64,000 nt of DNA from an uncultured Collinsella sp. (GCA_900544725.1 UQWK01000001.1:15066-79065), one strand, 5' to 3'. Counted from the first letter of the stretch, positions 2,144-61,185 are shown. Notes: a model not told the origin generated them from the sequence alone. Made by a program: numbers and translations.

Positions 2144-3052
2144 ATGAAGGCAATCATCCCCGCCGCCGGTCTTGGCACGCGTTTTCTGCCTGGCACTAAG
2201 TGCACGCCCAAAGAGATGCTGCCGGTGCTCGACAAGCCGGTCATCCAGTACGTCGTTGAGGAGGCGCTCGACCCCGATGAGGTCGACGATGCTATTATCG
2301 TCACCTCTCCTGGCAAGCCCGAGTTGCTGAGCTACTTCCAGCCCGATCGCTCGCTCGAGAACCTGCTTCGCGAGCGTGGCAAGGACGCCTACGCCGACGC
2401 CGTCGCCCATGCTGGTGGTATGCCGGTCGACTTCCGTTATCAGTACGAGCCCAAGGGCCTTGGCCACGCCATTCGCTCTGCCGCCGACGCTGTGGCAGGG
2501 GAGAACTTCCTGGTTCTTCTGGGCGATTACGTTGTGCCCAACCGTGACATCTGCGACAAGATGCTTGCCGTCTCCAAGGAGCACGGTGGCGCTTCTGTTA
2601 TCGCCGTTGCTGCTTGCTCGCCCGAGGAAGTCAGCCGCTACGGCGTTATCGCCGGCGAGCGAGTCGGTTCGCTCGAGGGCGCCGAGGGCGTTGCCGATGC
2701 CGAGCCGGGCGCTGTCTGGCGCATCGGCGGTCTGGTCGAGAAGCCCGCTCCCGAGGCGGCTCCGTCCAACCTGTACATCGTCGGTCGTTACCTGCTGAGC
2801 CCGCTGGTCATGGACCTGCTGGCCGATCAGCAGGCCGGCAAGGGCGGCGAGATCCAGCTCACCGACGCCATGGCCCGCTCGCTCGACCGCGAGGCCATGT
2901 ACGCTGTCGTCATCGACCCGCTCTCGGGCTACGACACCGGCACCCCGTCTGGCTGGATGGCCACCAACGCCCTCATGGCCGCAAGCGATCCTCGCTTTGC
3001 CAGCGCCTTCTGGGACGCCATCGACGAGCGCGGCGGTTTGATGCGCAAGTAA
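2144..3052 (+). CDS. galU: UTP--glucose-1-phosphate uridylyltransferase
   Basis: MKAIIPAAGLGTRFLP... nucleotidyltransferase N-terminus, VEKP motif; ~300 aa. Confidence 0.9.
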   Translation: MKAIIPAAGLGTRFLPGTKCTPKEMLPVLDKPVIQYVVEEALDPDEVDDAIIVTSPGKPELLSYFQPDRSLENLLRERGKDAYADAVAHAGGMPVDFRYQYEPKGLGHAIRSAADAVAGENFLVLLGDYVVPNRDICDKMLAVSKEHGGASVIAVAACSPEEVSRYGVIAGERVGSLEGAEGVADAEPGAVWRIGGLVEKPAPEAAPSNLYIVGRYLLSPLVMDLLADQQAGKGGEIQLTDAMARSLDREAMYAVVIDPLSGYDTGTPSGWMATNALMAASDPRFASAFWDAIDERGGLMRK

Positions 3053-3071
3053 GCCTTCGGGCATCGACATT

Positions 3072-3112
3072 TACGGGCGCGGACCTCGGTTCGCGCCCGT
3101 TTTTTTATAGAG
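3072..3112 (+). terminator. Rho-independent terminator after galU
   Basis: gggcgcgga-cctcggt-tcgcgccc followed by gtttttttat. Confidence 0.8.
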
Positions 3113-3339
3113 CTGCGATTGCCGGCTCTCTGTTCACAGAAAATATATGAACAGATGTTCGATACATACCTATCTACCTGTACCTTTTCTGTCGAAAAAC
3201 TTTGCTACTCCAAAAACTCAATTGCGTCAAGGCTTTTCTTGCCCAACGGTCGGTACCTGATAAACTATTAGGTTGCGATAACTGGCGAAGCCATGCCTCG
3301 CCAACCCACCGAGCATTTCCGTGAAGGAGGAAAAACCTG

Positions 3340-11316
<7,977 letters not shown>

Positions 11317-54271: not shown

Positions 54272-54306
54272 GGCCCCGGCTCCATCGCGAGCCGGGGCCT
54301 TTTGTT
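54272..54306 (+). terminator. Rho-independent terminator after xdhD
   Basis: ggccccggctc-catcgcg-agccggggcc followed by ttttgttt. Confidence 0.85.
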
Positions 54307-54380
54307 TGGAGCGGAGACAGCATCCCGGAATTCGGGCAATCCGGTGGTCAGGGGTTGAGCGAGCGTCGCGCTAAGGATGT

Positions 54381-54462
54381 CAAGCGTAAAACCTTCAATG
54401 AAAATGGCGTAAAAACTACATTGAAAGTAGCGTAAAATCAGCATTGAGAATGGCGTAATTTC
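54381..54462 (+). repeat. Three-and-a-half tandem ~23-bp direct repeats cATTGAaAaTgGCGTAAaa upstream of the ATPase gene
   Basis: caagcgtaaaacc / ttcaatgaaaatggcgtaaaaac / tacattgaaagtagcgtaaaatc / agcattgagaatggcgtaatttc. Confidence 0.75.
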
Positions 54463-54494
54463 GCATATCGCGTGATAGAGAGGGACGGCCGTCT

Positions 54495-55790
54495 ATGGAT
54501 GCACCAAAGAGATTGACCCAAAAGGGATATAGGCCCCGGCTCATAGAGGAGCGCCTCGACACCCTTATGCGGGCGTTTGGCTGTGTGGAGATCAACGGCC
54601 CCAAATGGTGCGGCAAGACCTGGACGGCGCTCTCTCGCTCGGCGAGCGTCTCCAGGCTCGATGAGCCTGCGCAGCGCGCGGCGGCAGAGGTCGACCCAAG
54701 CCTGGCACTCATCGGCGATGCGCCACACCTGGTCGATGAATGGCAGGAGGTGCCCGAGGTTTGGGATGCCGCCCGGCGCTTCGTGGACGCGAGCGGCAAC
54801 GAACGCGGGACACTTTTGCTCACGGGCTCGACCGCGCTCAAAAGCGAGGAGCGCAGCCATGTTCGTCATTCCGGCACGGGTAGGATCGCCCGTCTGTCAA
54901 TGCGCCCCATGGCCCTGTGTGAGTCGAGCGACGGCGAGCCGCTCGTGTCACTGGCAAGCCTCTTTAAGGGCGAGGGTTTTGCCCCTCAGCGTCGCGAGAG
55001 CACGGTGGATGACGTCGCCCGCTGGTGCTGCAGGGGCGGTTGGCCTGCAAACCTTGGGCTTTCGGATGATCTTGCGCGAGAGACGGCAAGCCAGTACGTG
55101 CACTCGGTGCTCGACGTCAACGTGCTGGACGAGGGCATGTCGCCCGAGCTTGCACACGGCCTTTTGCGAGCTCTTGCCATGAACGAGAGCCAGGCTGTCA
55201 CGTACAAGACGCTCGTAAAGGACGCCTCGTACGGTGAGGCGGGCCCCGACGAGAGGACCATCGCTGCGTACTTGGACCTCTTCAACAGGCTCAAGCTGAC
55301 CGAGGACCTGTGCGGATGGGAGCCGCCCATGCGCTCGAAGGCCCGCGTTCGCGTGCGCCCCAAGCGCTACTTCTGTGACCCGTCACTTGCGGCGGCGTTG
55401 CTGGGGGCTACCCCTGAGCGGCTGCTTGGCGATATGCAAACGCTGGGGATGCTCTTTGAGAATCTCGTCCTGCGCGACATGCGCGTGTTCCTTTCCACCT
55501 ACGGCGGTGTCGACAACAGTGTCCATTATTTCCGAGATGAGAAGGGCCTTGAGGTCGATCTGATCGTTGAGCACGACGGGCGTTGGGGAGCCATCGAGGT
55601 CAAACTGAGTGATGCGAAAGCAGACGATGGAGCGAGAAATCTCAAGGCGCTGGAGAAGAAAGTGCTCTCCAATCCTGCCGCCCAGAATGCTGCGCCGGCG
55701 TTTTTGGCGGTTGTGGTTGGAAAGGGAAGCATCGCCTACACGCGCGACGACGGCGTAGCAGTGATTCCCATGGCGGCACTTGGGGCGTAG
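54495..55790 (+). CDS. AAA+ family ATPase (COG1373-like, AAA domain plus DUF4143-type C-terminal domain)
   Basis: Walker A-like GPKWCGKTW; 431 aa with architecture typical of the widespread orphan ATPase family. Confidence 0.7.
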   Translation: MDAPKRLTQKGYRPRLIEERLDTLMRAFGCVEINGPKWCGKTWTALSRSASVSRLDEPAQRAAAEVDPSLALIGDAPHLVDEWQEVPEVWDAARRFVDASGNERGTLLLTGSTALKSEERSHVRHSGTGRIARLSMRPMALCESSDGEPLVSLASLFKGEGFAPQRRESTVDDVARWCCRGGWPANLGLSDDLARETASQYVHSVLDVNVLDEGMSPELAHGLLRALAMNESQAVTYKTLVKDASYGEAGPDERTIAAYLDLFNRLKLTEDLCGWEPPMRSKARVRVRPKRYFCDPSLAAALLGATPERLLGDMQTLGMLFENLVLRDMRVFLSTYGGVDNSVHYFRDEKGLEVDLIVEHDGRWGAIEVKLSDAKADDGARNLKALEKKVLSNPAAQNAAPAFLAVVVGKGSIAYTRDDGVAVIPMAALGA

Positions 55791-56249
55791 TGGTTTTGCG
55801 GGCGTGCCGTGCTTCCTTTACCGAAAATCCATTTGGTAAACCAGATGCTCGCGGATAGAATAAAGTTGACGGCAGCCCAAGTGGTGAAGAGCTGGGCAGC
55901 GCCGTTGCTTGGTCAAGAGGTCAGTGCCTTAATGGCAGCGACTTGTTATGCTTCGAATGCTGCTTGAGTGCCTCGGAAATTTCGATAAGCGCCGTGAAGA
56001 GCGAGACCAAAGCAACCAAGAGCTCTACGAGCTCTGATGGGCCCGGGATGACCTCTGATTCAAGTCACCGGGCCTCAATCTTTTTTATCCATTTGAATAG
56101 AGTGGGCGGCGCCCTTGGGGTCGACCGTATGGCGTGTGCCTGGCGCGCGTGGTATTGCGCTCCGCTTTCATGTCCGCACGGGCGCCTATCCTTACGGCAA
56201 TGTAGCCGCCTATGTGGCGAGCGGTAGTTGACGGAGAAAGGCCCTAACT

Positions 56250-56984
56250 GTGTCAGCTGAAAAGACGCCGTGTATCTCGGCTATCGATACGACGAACTTT
56301 GCGCGCCAGATCGTGCTGGACTTTGAGTTTGCGCCGGTGCCAAAGCAGCGCCAGCGCCGTGGACTGCGCAACGAGATTATTGAGGTCGGCGCCGTCAAGC
56401 TCGATTACCACGGCAACGTTATGGGCGAGTTCTCGCAGTTTGTGCAGACGGAATTTACCGAAGGCGTTGCGTTCCCTGTCCGCGAGCTTACGGGGATATC
56501 GGCTGTGGACACCGCGATGGCCGATCCGCTCTACGTGGTGATCAAAAGGCTCAGCGATTGGATCGGTCGCCACTCCGCCCAGATAGTTTGCTGGAGCGGG
56601 ACGGACCGTCGACAGCTTTTGACCGAGTGCCAGGCAAAGCACATAGACCTTTCCGCATTTCCTGCGGACTGGGCCGACCTGCAGGCGTTTTACACCTCGA
56701 TTATGGACGTAGGCAGCCACGGGCGTGTCTCGCTGGGCGACGCGGCAACGTGGTTTGGCATCGAGTTTGACGAGTCGACGGGGCACGCCCACAGTGCTTT
56801 GGCCGATGCGCGCGTAACCGCCAAATTGCTCAGGCAGATGATGGACGGGGACTACCACGTGAGCCCGCGCGCCCAGGAAGTCCGCCAGCGGTGGGGGATG
56901 GGCGAGCGGGCCCAGACACGCCTTTCCAGCAAGTGCCCCGAGCTGGGCGACCTGCTGCTGAGACTGAAGGCGGAGGGGAGGTAG
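56250..56984 (+). CDS. DEDDh-family 3-prime to 5-prime exonuclease (DnaQ-like)
   Basis: Exo I motif VLDFEFAP, Exo II WSGTDRRQL, Exo III HSALADARVTAKLL; GTG start uncertain. Confidence 0.75.
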   Translation: MSAEKTPCISAIDTTNFARQIVLDFEFAPVPKQRQRRGLRNEIIEVGAVKLDYHGNVMGEFSQFVQTEFTEGVAFPVRELTGISAVDTAMADPLYVVIKRLSDWIGRHSAQIVCWSGTDRRQLLTECQAKHIDLSAFPADWADLQAFYTSIMDVGSHGRVSLGDAATWFGIEFDESTGHAHSALADARVTAKLLRQMMDGDYHVSPRAQEVRQRWGMGERAQTRLSSKCPELGDLLLRLKAEGR

Positions 56985-57040
56985 GCCTTTTGAGAACGCC
57001 ATTCGGTTTGGCATGGCGGAGCTGTAAGCGCGACTCCGCC

Positions 57041-57518
57041 CTGCTGTTTGAATTGAAGCGTCAACCAGTATGACGAGCTGTCTGGCCTGTCTGCCTACAC
57101 CCCCCGCGATCCCGCGCGCGGCACTCAGCAGCTCGTACTCCCTCTGGCTCCATTGGCACAGATCGGTCGCGCGTACGGCGTCGCGGCACAGGTCCAGGAA
57201 CACCTCGGCTCCCTCGCAGAAGCACTCGCGGGCAAAGGCGCCCGAGCCGCTTGCGATGCACATGCCGTCGGCGAAGAGCTTCCAGCTGGACGGCTCGCGC
57301 AAGTCATCTCCGAGCAGCTTGATCTGCAGTACGTGCGGGTCACCGGCGGTGCAGAGCTCTTCCTCGAGCACCTGCACCGTAAAGCGCATCTGGTGGGAGA
57401 GACTGCTCTTGACCATGGCCGAGGCGTAGCCATTCGGCTTGTCCAGAAAATGCATTCGTTTTGGCTTGACTGCCAGGTTGTGGAAGTTGCGCTCGCTGCG
57501 CACGGAGAAATTGTCCAT
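57041..57518 (-). CDS. Hypothetical protein (N-terminus well supported; 3-prime end undefined)
   Basis: Strong RBS aaaggag plus ATG at 57518; strong GC3 codon bias over ~150 codons; the reading frame stays open to 56253 through the antisense of the exonuclease gene, so the true stop is unknown (possible frameshift or pseudogene). Confidence 0.35.
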
Positions 57519-57667
57519 ACGGACTCCTTTCATCGATGTTGGCAGGGCCACCGTGCCTCTTGGCCGGTTGGCGTCGGGATCGTGGAGCCAACTCTCTACC
57601 CCGACTCTGGATAAAACGCGCCCGCTCCTTGCGGGCACGATGGAGTCTATCAGCACGCGCGGACAGA

Positions 57668-57721
57668 AATCAAGCGCCGCCTGCGAAATGATGTGCAGAC
57701 GGCGCTTGATTACGCGGCAAT
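57668..57721. other. 12-bp perfect-stem hairpin aatcaagcgccg-N20-cggcgcttgatt
   Basis: Perfect inverted repeat adjacent to the tandem repeat array. Confidence 0.5.
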
Positions 57722-57731
57722 TATTCGGCCA

Positions 57732-57850
57732 ACATCCGGAAAAGTGTCGAAATCAGCCGTATGAAAGTACGGAAAAGTGTCGAAATCGGCACCTCAAAAG
57801 TACGGAAAAGTGTCGAATCTGATGGTCTCAACATCCGGAAAAGTGTAACC
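57732..57850 (+). repeat. Four tandem ~30-bp direct repeats with core CGGAAAAGTGTCGAAATC
   Basis: acatccggaaaagtgtcgaaatc / aaagtacggaaaagtgtcgaaatc / aaaagtacggaaaagtgtcgaatc / acatccggaaaagtgtaacc. Confidence 0.8.
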
Positions 57851-57915
57851 GGATGACAAAACAGCACGTAGAAGCTGGTGCTACATATGGACACTTCAGC
57901 CGCCCCCGATCCTCG

Positions 57916-58917
57916 CTACTCGTCTCCGTCGTTGGGGTCGCCCTTGAGGGTGTTGATGTCCAGGTACTGGTTGTCGTCCTCTGCTTTCTGCGTTTCCGAT
58001 TCGGACGCGGTGGGGCCGCGGAATAGCTGGAATCCCTCAAACGCGATCACGCCGAGCAGAGCGATGATGATGGCGATAAAGACAACCTTTGCCGCTTGCG
58101 AAAACTCCGAAAAGCGCGGCGGTTCTTTTTCGGTGTAGTAATCGGTAGCGCGCTCATCGTCGGTGCCGTGGGTATACGACGATGCCGAGGCTGCCTTTAC
58201 GCTCGCTTGGTTGTAATCGGGAGCGGGCGTGGCAGCAAACGGGTCACGAGAATAGCCGCGCGACGCTTGGCCGTAATCCTCGGTTTCGATGCGGCTGGCG
58301 CGAGGCTGTTCGCTCGGGCGGTTGGCGTATGCTGCGGTGTTGTCGTATGCGGAGTCGCGTTCCTCGGCAGCCGCAAACAGGGGGTTTACCGGAATGTCGA
58401 GCGCCGGCATGTCGCCCGAGGTCTCGTCCAGATCTGCCGCGGCCCAGGAATCAAAGGCAAACTGGCGGTTGGAAAGATCATCCAGATCCATGACAGGCGG
58501 CTCGAGCTCGGGCTCGGGAGCCGTGTATGCCGACCGCTGCGGGGCAGCGTAGCGAATCGTGCTGTCTGCCGTGGGGCGCTGTGCCGCTGCAGCGAGAAAC
58601 GCCGCCGTTTCGGACGGATCGCTAGTAGGACGGGGTGCAGGGGCGGCTTTACGCGTCGCCTGCACGATGGGACGGGTAGCAAAGTCGTCCGCGGGCACGG
58701 ACGCCGGCGCGGGCGTGGCAGAAGGTGCGGGCTTTGCACTTGTCGGGCGAGCTCCGCCGCCCATGAGTTCCTCGGCGGTCCAGGGGCGGTCGCTCATCAC
58801 GTCGTCGAGGCTCAGCGAAAAAAGGCCCTCTTCGCCCTCGTCAAACGCGTGTTTCGCATGCCTGGCGCCAGAAGCGATGCCTCCGCGGACGTTGCGTGAT
58901 GCGTTGCTCGACCCCAT
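57916..58917 (-). CDS. Hypothetical Pro/Ala-rich low-complexity protein with single C-terminal transmembrane helix
   Basis: RBS aaagga before MGSSNASR; TM helix VVFIAIIIALLGVIAF near C-terminus, followed by an acidic tail. Confidence 0.55.
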   Translation of the reverse strand: MGSSNASRNVRGGIASGARHAKHAFDEGEEGLFSLSLDDVMSDRPWTAEELMGGGARPTSAKPAPSATPAPASVPADDFATRPIVQATRKAAPAPRPTSDPSETAAFLAAAAQRPTADSTIRYAAPQRSAYTAPEPELEPPVMDLDDLSNRQFAFDSWAAADLDETSGDMPALDIPVNPLFAAAEERDSAYDNTAAYANRPSEQPRASRIETEDYGQASRGYSRDPFAATPAPDYNQASVKAASASSYTHGTDDERATDYYTEKEPPRFSEFSQAAKVVFIAIIIALLGVIAFEGFQLFRGPTASESETQKAEDDNQYLDINTLKGDPNDGDE

Positions 58918-59039
58918 CTTGTCCCATCCTTTCGAAATGCTCACATTCATCGATTATATGGAACTTGCCTTGCGGCCGACTCTCGGATTCGCGCATTCCA
59001 GAACTCGCGCCCAAAAGGGGAGGGATGCGGGCGCGCTGA

Positions 59040-59693
59040 CTATTTGTCGTCGGCCTCTGCCTTGGCCTCGTTAAGGTAGCTGTAGAAGCTGTACTTGGAG
59101 ATGCCAAAGAACTCGCAGGCGCGCTCGCTCGATTTGGAGATAAGGAAGGCGCCGCGGCGGTCGAGGTATCCGATAGCGCGAATGCGCTCGTCCTTGGTCA
59201 TGAGGGCGGCGGGCTTGCCCACGTACTGCTCGCACTCGCGCAGCAGATCCTCGAGCAGGTCGCCGATGTTTTTGGTGATGGGCTCGGGCTCAGTGTATCC
59301 CTTGTCGCCCGTGCCGGTGAGCGCGTCGAGCGAACGCTCAAACGCCTTCATGAGCGTGATGTCAAAGTTGATGCCCATAATGCCAACGGGGTTGCCGGCG
59401 TCGTCGCGAATGAAGATGGTCGACGATTTGAGCAGCTTGCCATCGGCGGTCTTGGTGAGGTACGGCGCGCGGTCGTGGACCTCGGCGGCATCCTCGTGCA
59501 TGGACTCGAGCACAATATGGCTGGGGCCGTCGCCCAGTTTACGTCCGCTGATGTGGCCGTTTTCAATCACCACGATAGAGTGGTCCATGTCCTCGGTCTC
59601 CAGATCGTGGACGACGATTTCGCAGTTGGGGCCAAACTGTAGCGCCAGGCTGCGCGCAAGACGCTTGTAAAACTCAATCTGTGCGGGGGTCAT
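59040..59693 (-). CDS. YheO-like PAS-domain plus HTH transcriptional regulator (paralog of 43818-44615)
   Basis: Shared family blocks ...IVVHDL...D.HSIVVIENGHISGRKLG...; C-terminal HTH ...ACEFFGISKYSFYSYL. Confidence 0.7.
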   Translation of the reverse strand: MTPAQIEFYKRLARSLALQFGPNCEIVVHDLETEDMDHSIVVIENGHISGRKLGDGPSHIVLESMHEDAAEVHDRAPYLTKTADGKLLKSSTIFIRDDAGNPVGIMGINFDITLMKAFERSLDALTGTGDKGYTEPEPITKNIGDLLEDLLRECEQYVGKPAALMTKDERIRAIGYLDRRGAFLISKSSERACEFFGISKYSFYSYLNEAKAEADDK

Positions 59694-59810
59694 AGGTGCC
59701 TTCCTAAAAATTAGTTTGGGCTCACTGTGCCATAAACCACACCTGTTCGCAAATAACGAAAGCGTCGCTGCGTTATGCGACCGTTCGGCGGCGAAAAAGT
59801 ACCGATTACG

Positions 59811-59882
59811 GCAACAAACAATTTGTTAGGTTTGCCAATCAAAAAGTGTGATAGAACAGTGCTAACAAACTTTTTGTTTGGC
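59811..59882. promoter_or_regulatory. Two AACAAAC-N-TTTGTT palindromes in the divergent region between the YheO-like regulator and dpaL (candidate operators)
   Basis: ggcaacaaacaatttgttagg and gctaacaaactttttgtttggc. Confidence 0.4.
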
Positions 59883-59970
59883 ATCCACATAAAAGTTCAG
59901 CCGCATGAATGGGAATGGGCTGAAACGCGTATGCGGGGGCCGGCAAGAGAGAACTTAAGGAGTTCACCGT

Positions 59971-61185
59971 ATGGCCGATAAGATCCAGTGGGCGGGCAAC
60001 ACGATGCCCAAGAGCGATGACAAGCACTTGGGAATCATGAGCCTCGACCACGTGAAGAAGGCCCGCGCCTTCCACCAGTCGTTCCCCCAGTACACCGTCA
60101 CTCCGCTTGCCCGCCTGGATGGCCAGGCCGCGCGCCTGGGCCTGTCCAACCTGTGCGTTAAGGACGAGAGCTATCGCTTTGGCCTCAACGCCTTTAAGGT
60201 CCTGGGCGGTTCGTTTGCCATGGCCAACTACATTGCCGACGAGACCGGCAAGGACGTTGCCGAGTGCACCTTCGATTACCTGACCTCCGATCAGCTTGCC
60301 AAGGACTTTGGCCAGGCTACCTTCTTTACCGCCACCGACGGCAACCATGGCCGCGGCGTGGCATGGGCTGCCAACAAGCTGGGCCAGAAGGCCGTCGTGC
60401 ACATGCCCAAGGGTTCCACCAAGCCCCGCTTCGATAACATCGCCGCCGAGGGCGCCACGGTGACCATCGAAGAGGTCAACTACGACGAGTGCGTGCGCAT
60501 GGCCGCCGCCGAGGCCGATGCCTGCGAGCGCGGCGTCATCGTTCAGGACACCGCCTGGGAGGGCTACGAGAAGATTCCGTCCTGGATCATGGAGGGCTAC
60601 GGCACCATGGCTTCCGAGGCTGCCGAGCAGCTGCGCGAGATGGCCATCAACCGCCCGACGCACGTCTTTGTTCAGGCCGGTGTAGGCTCGCTGGCCGGCG
60701 CCGTGGTGGGCTACTTCACCAACCTGTATCCCGATAACCCGCCGACCTTCGTTGTGGTCGAGTGCGCTCCGGCCGCCTGCCTGTACAAGGGCGCTGCCGC
60801 CGGCGACGGCGATCCGCGCATCGTGGACGGCGACATGCCCTCCATCATGGCCGGCCTGTGCTGCGGCGAGCCCAACATCCTGGGCTGGGATATCCTGCGC
60901 AACCACGCTACCGCCTTCGTGTCCTGCCCCGACTGGGTCACCGCTCGCGGCATGCGCACCCTGGGCGCTCCCGAGAAGGGCGACCCGCGCGTCATCTCCG
61001 GCGAGTCCGGCGCAGTGACCACCGGCCTGGTCGAGACCCTCATGCTCGATCCCGAGTACGCTGAGCTCAAGGAGCTCATCGGCCTGGACAAGACGAGCTC
61101 CGTGCTCTGCTTCTCCACCGAGGGCGACACCGATCCGGATCAGTACCGTCGCATCGTCTGGGAGGGCGAGTATCCCACCTGCTAG
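59971..61185 (+). CDS. dpaL: Diaminopropionate ammonia-lyase (PLP-dependent)
   Basis: PLP-lysine context CVKDESYRFGLNAFKVLGG; ~400 aa as E. coli YgeX/DpaL. Confidence 0.85.
   Translation: MADKIQWAGNTMPKSDDKHLGIMSLDHVKKARAFHQSFPQYTVTPLARLDGQAARLGLSNLCVKDESYRFGLNAFKVLGGSFAMANYIADETGKDVAECTFDYLTSDQLAKDFGQATFFTATDGNHGRGVAWAANKLGQKAVVHMPKGSTKPRFDNIAAEGATVTIEEVNYDECVRMAAAEADACERGVIVQDTAWEGYEKIPSWIMEGYGTMASEAAEQLREMAINRPTHVFVQAGVGSLAGAVVGYFTNLYPDNPPTFVVVECAPAACLYKGAAAGDGDPRIVDGDMPSIMAGLCCGEPNILGWDILRNHATAFVSCPDWVTARGMRTLGAPEKGDPRVISGESGAVTTGLVETLMLDPEYAELKELIGLDKTSSVLCFSTEGDTDPDQYRRIVWEGEYPTC

Follow-up and report, generated by a model that had tools for sequence, protein, structure and literature searches.

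Two direct-repeat arrays in a strain-variable chromosomal segment of Collinsella are, by sequence comparison, instances of a conserved cis-element of PDC-S01 genes, one that is seen in four phyla (Actinomycetota, Bacteroidota, Chlorobiota, and Pseudomonadota). The segment lies between xdhD and a gene for a Pro/Ala-rich protein, in a 64-kb stretch of DNA from an uncultured Collinsella sp. (GCA_900544725.1 UQWK01000001.1:15066-79065); this whole stretch is called the window. PDC-S01 is a PADLOC defence candidate, a single gene in which an AAA_14 + DUF4143/COG1373 ATPase is fused to a PD-(D/E)xK nuclease. The PDC-S01 ATPase gene of the window is called ATP1, ATP2 is a second PDC-S01 ATPase gene found in other strains, and L-numbers denote related loci or contigs. 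A defence hotspot is in itself ordinary, and the ATPase can readily be recognised as PDC-S01; the arrays stand out, as a cis-element of PDC-S01 genes. No description of them was found in the literature on DUF4143, COG1373, PDC-S01, and AAA_14/PF13173/PF13635, an incomplete library and so a weak sign of novelty. The main features are:

54383..54460, + strand: direct-repeat array with a 23-bp period; 3.3 units, core GCGTAAAA..CATTGAAA; ends 35 nt before the ATP1 start codon
54495..55790, + strand: ATP1, a 431-amino-acid (aa) AAA_14 + DUF4143 protein and PDC-S01 member (Pfam, PADLOC, AlphaFold2 [AF2])
57730..57846, + strand: direct-repeat array with a 33-bp period; four CGGAAAAGTGT(CGAAAT) cores; orphaned in the window
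57847..57915: scar of the ATP2 deletion

The 23-bp array accompanies ATP1-type genes closely. Tandem Repeats Finder (TRF) places it at 54384-54458 with 3.3 copies, so that the array and the period given in a first-pass annotation of the window, which had counted 3.5 tandem repeats of ~23 bp upstream of the ATPase gene, both hold with a slightly lower copy number. Its unit matches three times in the 64-kb window against 0.01 expected, all at the array. An array of 3.3 or 4.3 copies is found at -36 to -133 in 66/66 Collinsella loci; copy number is polymorphic among strains (L001-L010, L011-L086), with 3.3, 4.3 (the commonest), and, in some metagenome contigs, 5.3 copies. In 29 distinct Collinsella upstream sequences, array and leader hardly vary, and conservation ends ~20 bp before the first repeat. 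Homologues 64-74% identical to ATP1 (from Olsenella, Parafannyhessea, Coriobacteriales, and contigs labelled uncultured Collinsella, Atopobium, or Methanomethylophilaceae) carry arrays that differ in unit sequence and agree in period. Periodicity was assessed by autocorrelation over periods 12-50 (39 tested), with shuffle-based significance. The best period was 23 in all 12 representative ATP1-homologue loci (two Collinsella, ten 64-74% identical), with z = 5.8 to 21.7. Among ten plasmid homologues only 30-40% identical, seven have period 23 (Bacteroides ovatus, B. uniformis, Prosthecochloris, Mycobacterium, two Collinsella plasmids, and Actinomyces, the last not significant), and three alpha/beta-proteobacterial genes have period 22 (Rhizobium, Rhodoferax, and Agrobacterium; one clearly significant). 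In L001-type strains the N-terminal half of ATP1 (54477-55134) is deleted and the array is kept. By these comparisons, the 23-bp array is a conserved upstream element of the PDLC04790-type PDC-S01 ATPase. A separate observation comes from Olsenella uli (L085, 7388-7480), where a second 23-bp array (CGTATTTTGCCGAATG core) lies beyond the terminator of the ATP1 homologue; it is an orphan, no ATPase gene coming after it.

The 33-bp array belongs to the second gene. TRF delimits it at 57730-57846, and its unit has three matches in the window against 0.04 expected, again all at the array; four tandem repeats had been annotated here, and the four cores are present, with a period of 33 instead of ~30 bp. 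In L001-type strains, ATP2 (440 aa, PDLC04792-type) occupies precisely the interval from the 33-bp array to the stop codon of the Pro/Ala-rich gene, as ~1.4 kb carrying the ATP2 open reading frame (ORF) between positions equivalent to ~57870 and 57911. Because ATP2 fills the space between the two, the 33-bp array stands directly upstream of ATP2. The gene is absent from the window and from L006, with different deletion junctions. The array of the window is thus the orphaned upstream element of a deleted second PDC-S01 gene. Period 33 is the best period in 22/24 non-redundant ATP2 homologues, down to 42% identity, and plasmid homologues 28-35% identical have period 32-33 in six of eight cases (Prevotella, Glaesserella, Vibrio, Acinetobacter, Ruminococcus, and Fusobacterium, the last not significant by the shuffle test). 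A GAAAAGTG core is common to the ATP2-type arrays of Collinsella, Prevotella, and Glaesserella. Orphan arrays mark the sites of lost PDC-S01 genes, which is useful in genome annotation. ATP1 and ATP2 are both PDC-S01 members (PDLC04790 and PDLC04792) and mutually remote; the idea that they are recent paralogues whose recombination built the arrangement was rejected on their BLASTP E=0.04 and the separate ATP2 deletions. L081 has an orphan 33-bp array of its own (~1470-1640, AAAAACGTCGCA core), placed 1.1 kb 5' of the 23-bp array and the gene that goes with it.

Arrays of three to seven direct repeats precede these ATPase genes, with a period, 23 or 33 bp, that is specific to the subfamily. A control of 463 ORF-upstream regions from the same loci supports this specificity: every region with period 23/33 and at least 39/66 matches belonged either to an ATPase gene or to an orphan array (L085 and L081, with cores as in the ATPase arrays). 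No neighbour gene is kept across divergent ATPase contexts. Array and ATPase gene form a conserved unit, because the array tracks the gene and no neighbour is shared among the divergent contexts. The first-pass annotation had the arrays bounding an island; each instead lies directly 5' of a PDC-S01 ATPase gene or, where that gene was deleted, of the scar.

ATP1 is a self-contained PDC-S01 unit: a single polypeptide joins an NTPase like those of the origin recognition complex (ORC) and of signal transduction ATPases with numerous domains (STAND) to a winged helix and a PD-(D/E)xK nuclease. It matches Pfam AAA_14/DUF4143 (E=3e-31) and PADLOC PDLC04790 (PDC-S01; E=1.3e-62, profile positions 10-417 of 422), and ATP2 of the relatives matches PDLC04792 (PDC-S01; E=5e-165). 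A defence association had been suspected for the ATPase, and the PADLOC search bears it out with a candidate profile; the same search supplies a candidate, PDC-S01, for a locus that had been left without assignment to any described system. ATP1 shares with PDC-S01 the profile, the architecture, and neighbours of the restriction–modification (RM) and defence type, and its ATPase and PD-(D/E)xK domains are fused in a single gene, as PDC-S01 is defined. The Walker A (GPKWCGKT) and Walker B (LVDE) motifs and the C-terminal PD-(D/E)xK residues (D355...E368-V-K370) are invariant or nearly so among 50 homologues. The AF2 model is of good quality (pLDDT 88, pTM 0.90). It places a winged helix at ~217-293, with a strongly basic and conserved wing, followed by the PD-(D/E)xK core. 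Its best PDB folds are the archaeal Walker ATPases PABY2304 and SSO1545, CED-4/Apaf-1, and Orc1/Cdc6-ORC (2qby, E=2.4e-4; ORC, E ~1e-4), with the nuclease domain following the winged helix. MalT and the nucleases Can2/Cdn1 are also among the matches, the latter probably reflecting the C-terminal nuclease domain.

DUF4143/COG1373 is listed as a PD-(D/E)xK family of unknown function (PMC3424549). The PDC candidates were defined in bioRxiv 10.1101/2024.01.29.577857, and PDC-S01 is reported to be among the most abundant defence candidates of bacteria and archaea (PMC12988326); it is also reported as the fourth commonest in prokaryotes. Its anti-phage role has candidate status, and a mechanism was not found in the literature searched on DUF4143, COG1373, and PDC-S01; nor did the PDC-S01 literature searched describe an upstream repeat array. 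The array offers a testable route into the mechanism of this abundant gene family and predicts a DNA ligand for the ATPase. It also suggests tight self-control of PDC-S01 genes, and assay constructs that lack the native upstream region, or misuse it, may behave differently.

The arrays might act as iteron-like operator sites on DNA. The ATPase would bind its array head to tail through its own winged helix and oligomerise there, and the oligomer would autoregulate ATPase expression, acting at the core promoter or immediately 5' of it; the nuclease might be parked inactive in the array assembly until a trigger arrives. The chances that the arrays are operators of this kind, bound by the ATPase winged helix in cooperative head-to-tail assembly and serving autoregulation, are judged to be about even. 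Across phyla, the cores and periods go with the ATPase subfamily, and the loci have nothing else in common; the winged helix of the ATPase would therefore be the most economical binder. The earlier suggestion that the iterated repeats are protein-binding sites still looks the best reading. Within the arrays, conservation is limited to a core of 16-17 nt, the spacers differing between units; the cores tolerate exchange of A and T (CGTAAAAT, CGTATTTT, CGTAATTT), and the unit in Acinetobacter and Vibrio is a palindrome of two AAAAGTG half-sites. Two Bacteroides loci have a TAnnTTTG box, the Bacteroides -7 promoter consensus, 3' of the array. A sigma-70 promoter scan gave sites no more numerous than in shuffled sequence. 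Two scans of viral contigs for the array cores gave single matches per contig, at about chance level, and no arrays.

Several points weigh against this proposal. The ATPase is put forward as the binder solely from being the sole shared gene, and winged helices in STAND proteins often make oligomer contacts rather than bind DNA. In two Collinsella plasmid homologues, a gene for a small helix–turn–helix (HTH) regulator lies just 5' of the array and is a candidate binder there. Arrays also outlast the loss of their genes (window, L006, L085, and L081), and may therefore serve something else or simply decay slowly. Six homologues (L141, L150, L161, L177, L237, and L243) show no significant periodicity. 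Finally, the only published assay, of a single PDC-S01 representative in E. coli, saw no protection from T4, T5, or T7 (bioRxiv 10.1101/2024.09.26.614923).

The survival of arrays without the ATPase gene and the adjacent HTH gene would fit DNA sites for another factor, whether a host nucleoid protein, a small HTH regulator, or RNA polymerase itself, the array then being a promoter cluster of -10-like TANNNT boxes in AT-rich DNA. The actinobacterial -10 pattern is TANNNT, and ATP1-type cores carry TAAAAT, TATTTT, or TAATTT, which fit it. This alternative is nevertheless unlikely: the same cores and the same exact periods accompany the ATPase subfamily in four phyla whose promoters and nucleoid proteins differ, no other gene is common to the contexts, and the promoter-like box of Bacteroides lies outside the array.

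A further possibility is that the repeats act as RNA, either as a repeat RNA restraining a nuclease, as in type III toxin–antitoxin systems, or as a protein-bound repeat leader of the mRNA. In ToxIN, CptIN, and AbiQ, tandem repeats lie directly 5' of a nuclease-type gene, and the PDC-S01 arrays likewise stand, in fixed orientation, immediately 5' of a nuclease-bearing, defence-associated gene; TenpIN and AbiQ/antiQ share this likeness. The differences outweigh it and leave the RNA alternative improbable. RNA of the 23-bp array shows no excess folding (z = 0.08 and 0.26), that of the 33-bp array gives z = -1.7 to -2.2, and Rfam at a permissive threshold finds no structured RNA in either. The type III repeats have a terminator between array and gene; none is seen at 54383-54495, where the array is followed by 35 nt including the ribosome-binding site before the ATP1 start, and across loci the gap is 20-45 nt, ribosome-binding site included. 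The units are short (23 or 33 nt), and the ATPase is unrelated to the ToxN, AbiQ, CptN, or TenpN endoribonucleases; Pfam and PADLOC give AAA_14/DUF4143 and PDC-S01 alone. Protein-binding DNA sites are favoured over RNA because conservation is confined to the cores, A and T swap within them, some lineages have palindromic half-sites, the RNA of the 23-bp array has no excess structure, the terminator is missing, and the Bacteroides promoter-like box lies downstream of the array.

The first-pass annotation had instead proposed a two-gene defence system, formed by the ATPase and the neighbouring DEDDh exonuclease, with the repeats as accessories. In virtually all of the ~70 Collinsella loci that are long enough, the two genes lie side by side and point the same way, and the exonuclease has weak PADLOC matches to a Cas-associated DEDDh profile (E=9e-14) and to PDC-S48 (E=1.6e-9), the latter spanning less than half of the profile. 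The linkage, however, is confined to one orthologous locus in one genus: the exonuclease is near none of ten homologues outside it (64-74% identity). It is retained in strains with a truncated (L001-type) or deleted (L004) ATPase, the 459-bp gap between the two genes tolerates IS110 and other insertions, and the ATPase has a nuclease domain of its own. A functional gene pair is thus very doubtful. A "3'-5' exonuclease" annotated beside a Bacteroides homologue was considered as a pair partner and rejected, being a UvrD_C fragment.

Replication-origin iterons, or transposon-end or recombination sites with the ATPase as initiator or target selector, are the least probable reading of all: the 22-23 bp spacing of classical plasmid iterons, the Orc1/Cdc6-like fold, the frequency of homologues on plasmids, and an insertion/deletion hotspot in which two deletions begin 16-24 bp after an array all suit it, but the module is a single chromosomal gene, unaccompanied across contexts by any Rep, transposase, integrase, or second element end, some host plasmids have typed replicons of their own, the arrays keep the fixed short distance from the start codon of a promoter-proximal element, and no Rep-family (WH1-WH2) gene is present in the window segment or the related loci.

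Comparison with characterised systems helps to place the proposed ATPase-bound operators. The arrays resemble plasmid Rep-iteron, ParR-parC, TubR-tubC, and archaeal Orc1/Cdc6-origin recognition box (ORB) systems in having several direct repeats, at a constant spacing of two to three helical turns, next to the presumed binder's gene; as in iteron and ORB arrays, each unit combines a conserved core with a variable spacer, and the ATPase, like Orc1/Cdc6 (2qby), joins an AAA+ domain to a winged helix. Unlike these replication and partition systems, PDC-S01 has no replication or partition function and no partner genes, carries a C-terminal nuclease, and lies here on a chromosome in a defence hotspot; binding of its array by the ATPase is putative. 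MalT-type STAND regulators, which undergo signal-dependent oligomerisation on direct-repeat boxes, share with PDC-S01 a STAND-like NTPase fold (matches to CED-4, Apaf-1, and MalT) and direct-repeat boxes 5' of a promoter. PDC-S01 differs from them in lacking a LuxR-type DNA-binding domain and sensor repeats, in having its own gene as the sole candidate target, and in its C-terminal nuclease.

The repeat spacing of 23 or 33 bp corresponds to ~2.2 or 3.1 helical turns, that is, off-phase. This invites a bolder and distinctly tentative proposal: PDC-S01 proteins might be sequence-specific DNA-binding ORC/STAND-like switches, each with a private iteron array for an ordered head-to-tail oligomer, and the fixed off-phase spacing would dictate a helical filament that autoregulates the gene and holds the nuclease inactive until infection releases or remodels it. 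If true, such a switch on iterons would give single-gene immunity a regulatory logic of a new kind.

The segment from xdhD to the Pro/Ala-rich gene (~54300-57915) is a hypervariable defence-gene hotspot of the Collinsella aerofaciens complex. All features listed in the first-pass annotation were found, at or near where it had placed them, and all exceed chance. Besides the arrays, ATP1, and the ATP2 scar, the features of the segment and its right flank are:

54272..54309, + strand: intrinsic terminator of xdhD, with a GC stem of 11 bp and then a T-run; marks where the variable segment starts
55791..56249: non-coding gap or scar of 459 bp between ATP1 and the exonuclease gene
56250..56984, + strand: DEDDh 3'-5' exonuclease, 244 aa, RNase_T family, KapD/ERI-1-like (Pfam)
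57100..57518, - strand: ORF140, starting at 57518, convergent; its stop is lost in the window
57527..57617, - strand: SAM-I (S-adenosylmethionine, SAM) riboswitch aptamer, RF00162; its 3' end overlaps the ORF140 ribosome-binding site
57668..57711: inverted repeat, arms 17 nt and 94% complementary, loop 10 nt; situated between riboswitch and 33-bp array
57916..58950, - strand: Pro/Ala-rich protein, 344 aa, with a single C-proximal hydrophobic segment; conserved flank

The cargo was compared across ten gut-metagenome contigs with an identical YheO protein, retrieved by exact-protein look-up, and 80 genome loci. The ten contigs are alike in their flanks and differ in what lies between the Pro/Ala-rich gene and xdhD. 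The majority hold a 440-aa AAA_14/DUF4143 gene, ORF140, the exonuclease, and a 203-aa DUF4143 fragment; the remainder have GmrSD, a DUF2357 protein, or type I RM genes accompanied by an integrase. Among the 80 genome loci, extra cargo includes IS110 transposases or a 223-aa gene inside the ATPase–exonuclease gap, and ~3.6-kb inserts between the exonuclease and ORF140. Because the cargo differs between identical flanks, the segment is a strain-variable hotspot rich in defence-type genes. The variable island of the earlier description is thereby borne out, except that the Pro/Ala-rich gene, counted there as cargo, recurs in each of the ten YheO-sharing contigs and is part of the conserved flank. 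The PDC-S01 unit does not include the exonuclease, ORF140 and its SAM riboswitch, or the Pro/Ala-rich gene, which are only its neighbours.

Another cargo gene of the 80 loci is a third ATPase-nuclease, found in many Collinsella strains between xdhD and the 23-bp array (L021, 459 aa at 4424-5803; also L019 and L004). It belongs to the ATPase_2 + DUF234 family, PADLOC PDC-S27 (E=1e-61). Upstream of it in L021 (4353-4408) is a palindrome with ~23-nt arms (GCGTTATAGCTAGCTATATTATA / TATAATATAGCTAGCTATAACGC) and no tandem repeats. The intergenic DNA round this extra cargo (L021, ~2290-4310) contains several short copies resembling CAGAACGGGACACGCTTTCCGGA, with the look of repetitive extragenic palindromic (REP) sequences or miniature inverted-repeat transposable elements (MITEs).

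The exonuclease scores 39.8 bits against RNase_T (Pfam cut-off 24), and its DEDDh motifs DFE, SGTD, and HSALAD are intact. ORFs in the gap before it (55791-56249) have no Pfam or PADLOC matches. In L072, L076, and L080, a copy ~81% identical to 55820-56030 of the window flanks the IS110-family transposase or the 223-aa gene in the gap; the latter gene likewise has no Pfam or PADLOC matches.

ORF140 is 140 aa long in relatives, where its TAG stop corresponds to 57095-57097. The window has a 1-bp insertion in the C-run at 57100-57105 relative to all relatives examined; because this insertion removes the stop, the window ORF reads on antisense through the exonuclease gene to 56253 (421 codons). 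Either the frameshift is genuine or the homopolymer was misassembled. The convergent minus-strand ORF noted earlier is present, and its extended, stop-less frame is due to the inserted base. The SAM-I riboswitch 5' of ORF140 scores 45.1 bits against a gathering threshold of 44.4 (RF00162, model positions 1-108), is present before ORF140 in 10/10 related loci, and recurs on an unrelated contig (L181, 435-526, 47.8 bits) before a 37%-identical ORF140 homologue (536-1012). ORF140 thus represents a small SAM-riboswitch-controlled family, since the riboswitch is conserved in all ten loci and before the distant homologue. The family has 112 representatives at 50% clustering, and its relatives are Collinsella or unlabelled metagenome sequences. 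Pfam, NCBIfam, PHROG, and PADLOC gave no matches, the best PDB-profile match was not significant (E=0.21), and the AF2 model (pLDDT 45) is unusable. Given its place in a defence hotspot, one idea is that ORF140 might respond to SAM depletion.

A hairpin with a 12-bp stem had been reported next to the 33-bp array. The hairpin is real (57668-57711, folding z = -6.5) and conserved in relatives, and its arms are 17 nt with one mismatch rather than 12. A second, GC-rich hairpin followed by a T-run (57617-57639, - strand) lies immediately 5' of the P1 stem of the riboswitch, an odd site for a terminator.

The Pro/Ala-rich membrane protein (57916-58950) has its one hydrophobic segment ~34 residues from the C-terminus. 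It diverges much faster than its neighbours YheO and DpaL (59040-61185): across L013-L071 its amino-acid identity is 58-92%, against 90-93% for YheO and 99-100% for DpaL. Two contigs with the labels of archaeal bins, Methanobrevibacter smithii (L075) and Methanomethylophilaceae (L082), hold this locus or a 73%-identical homologue; L075 is almost certainly mis-binned, because its Collinsella xdhD is 99% identical.

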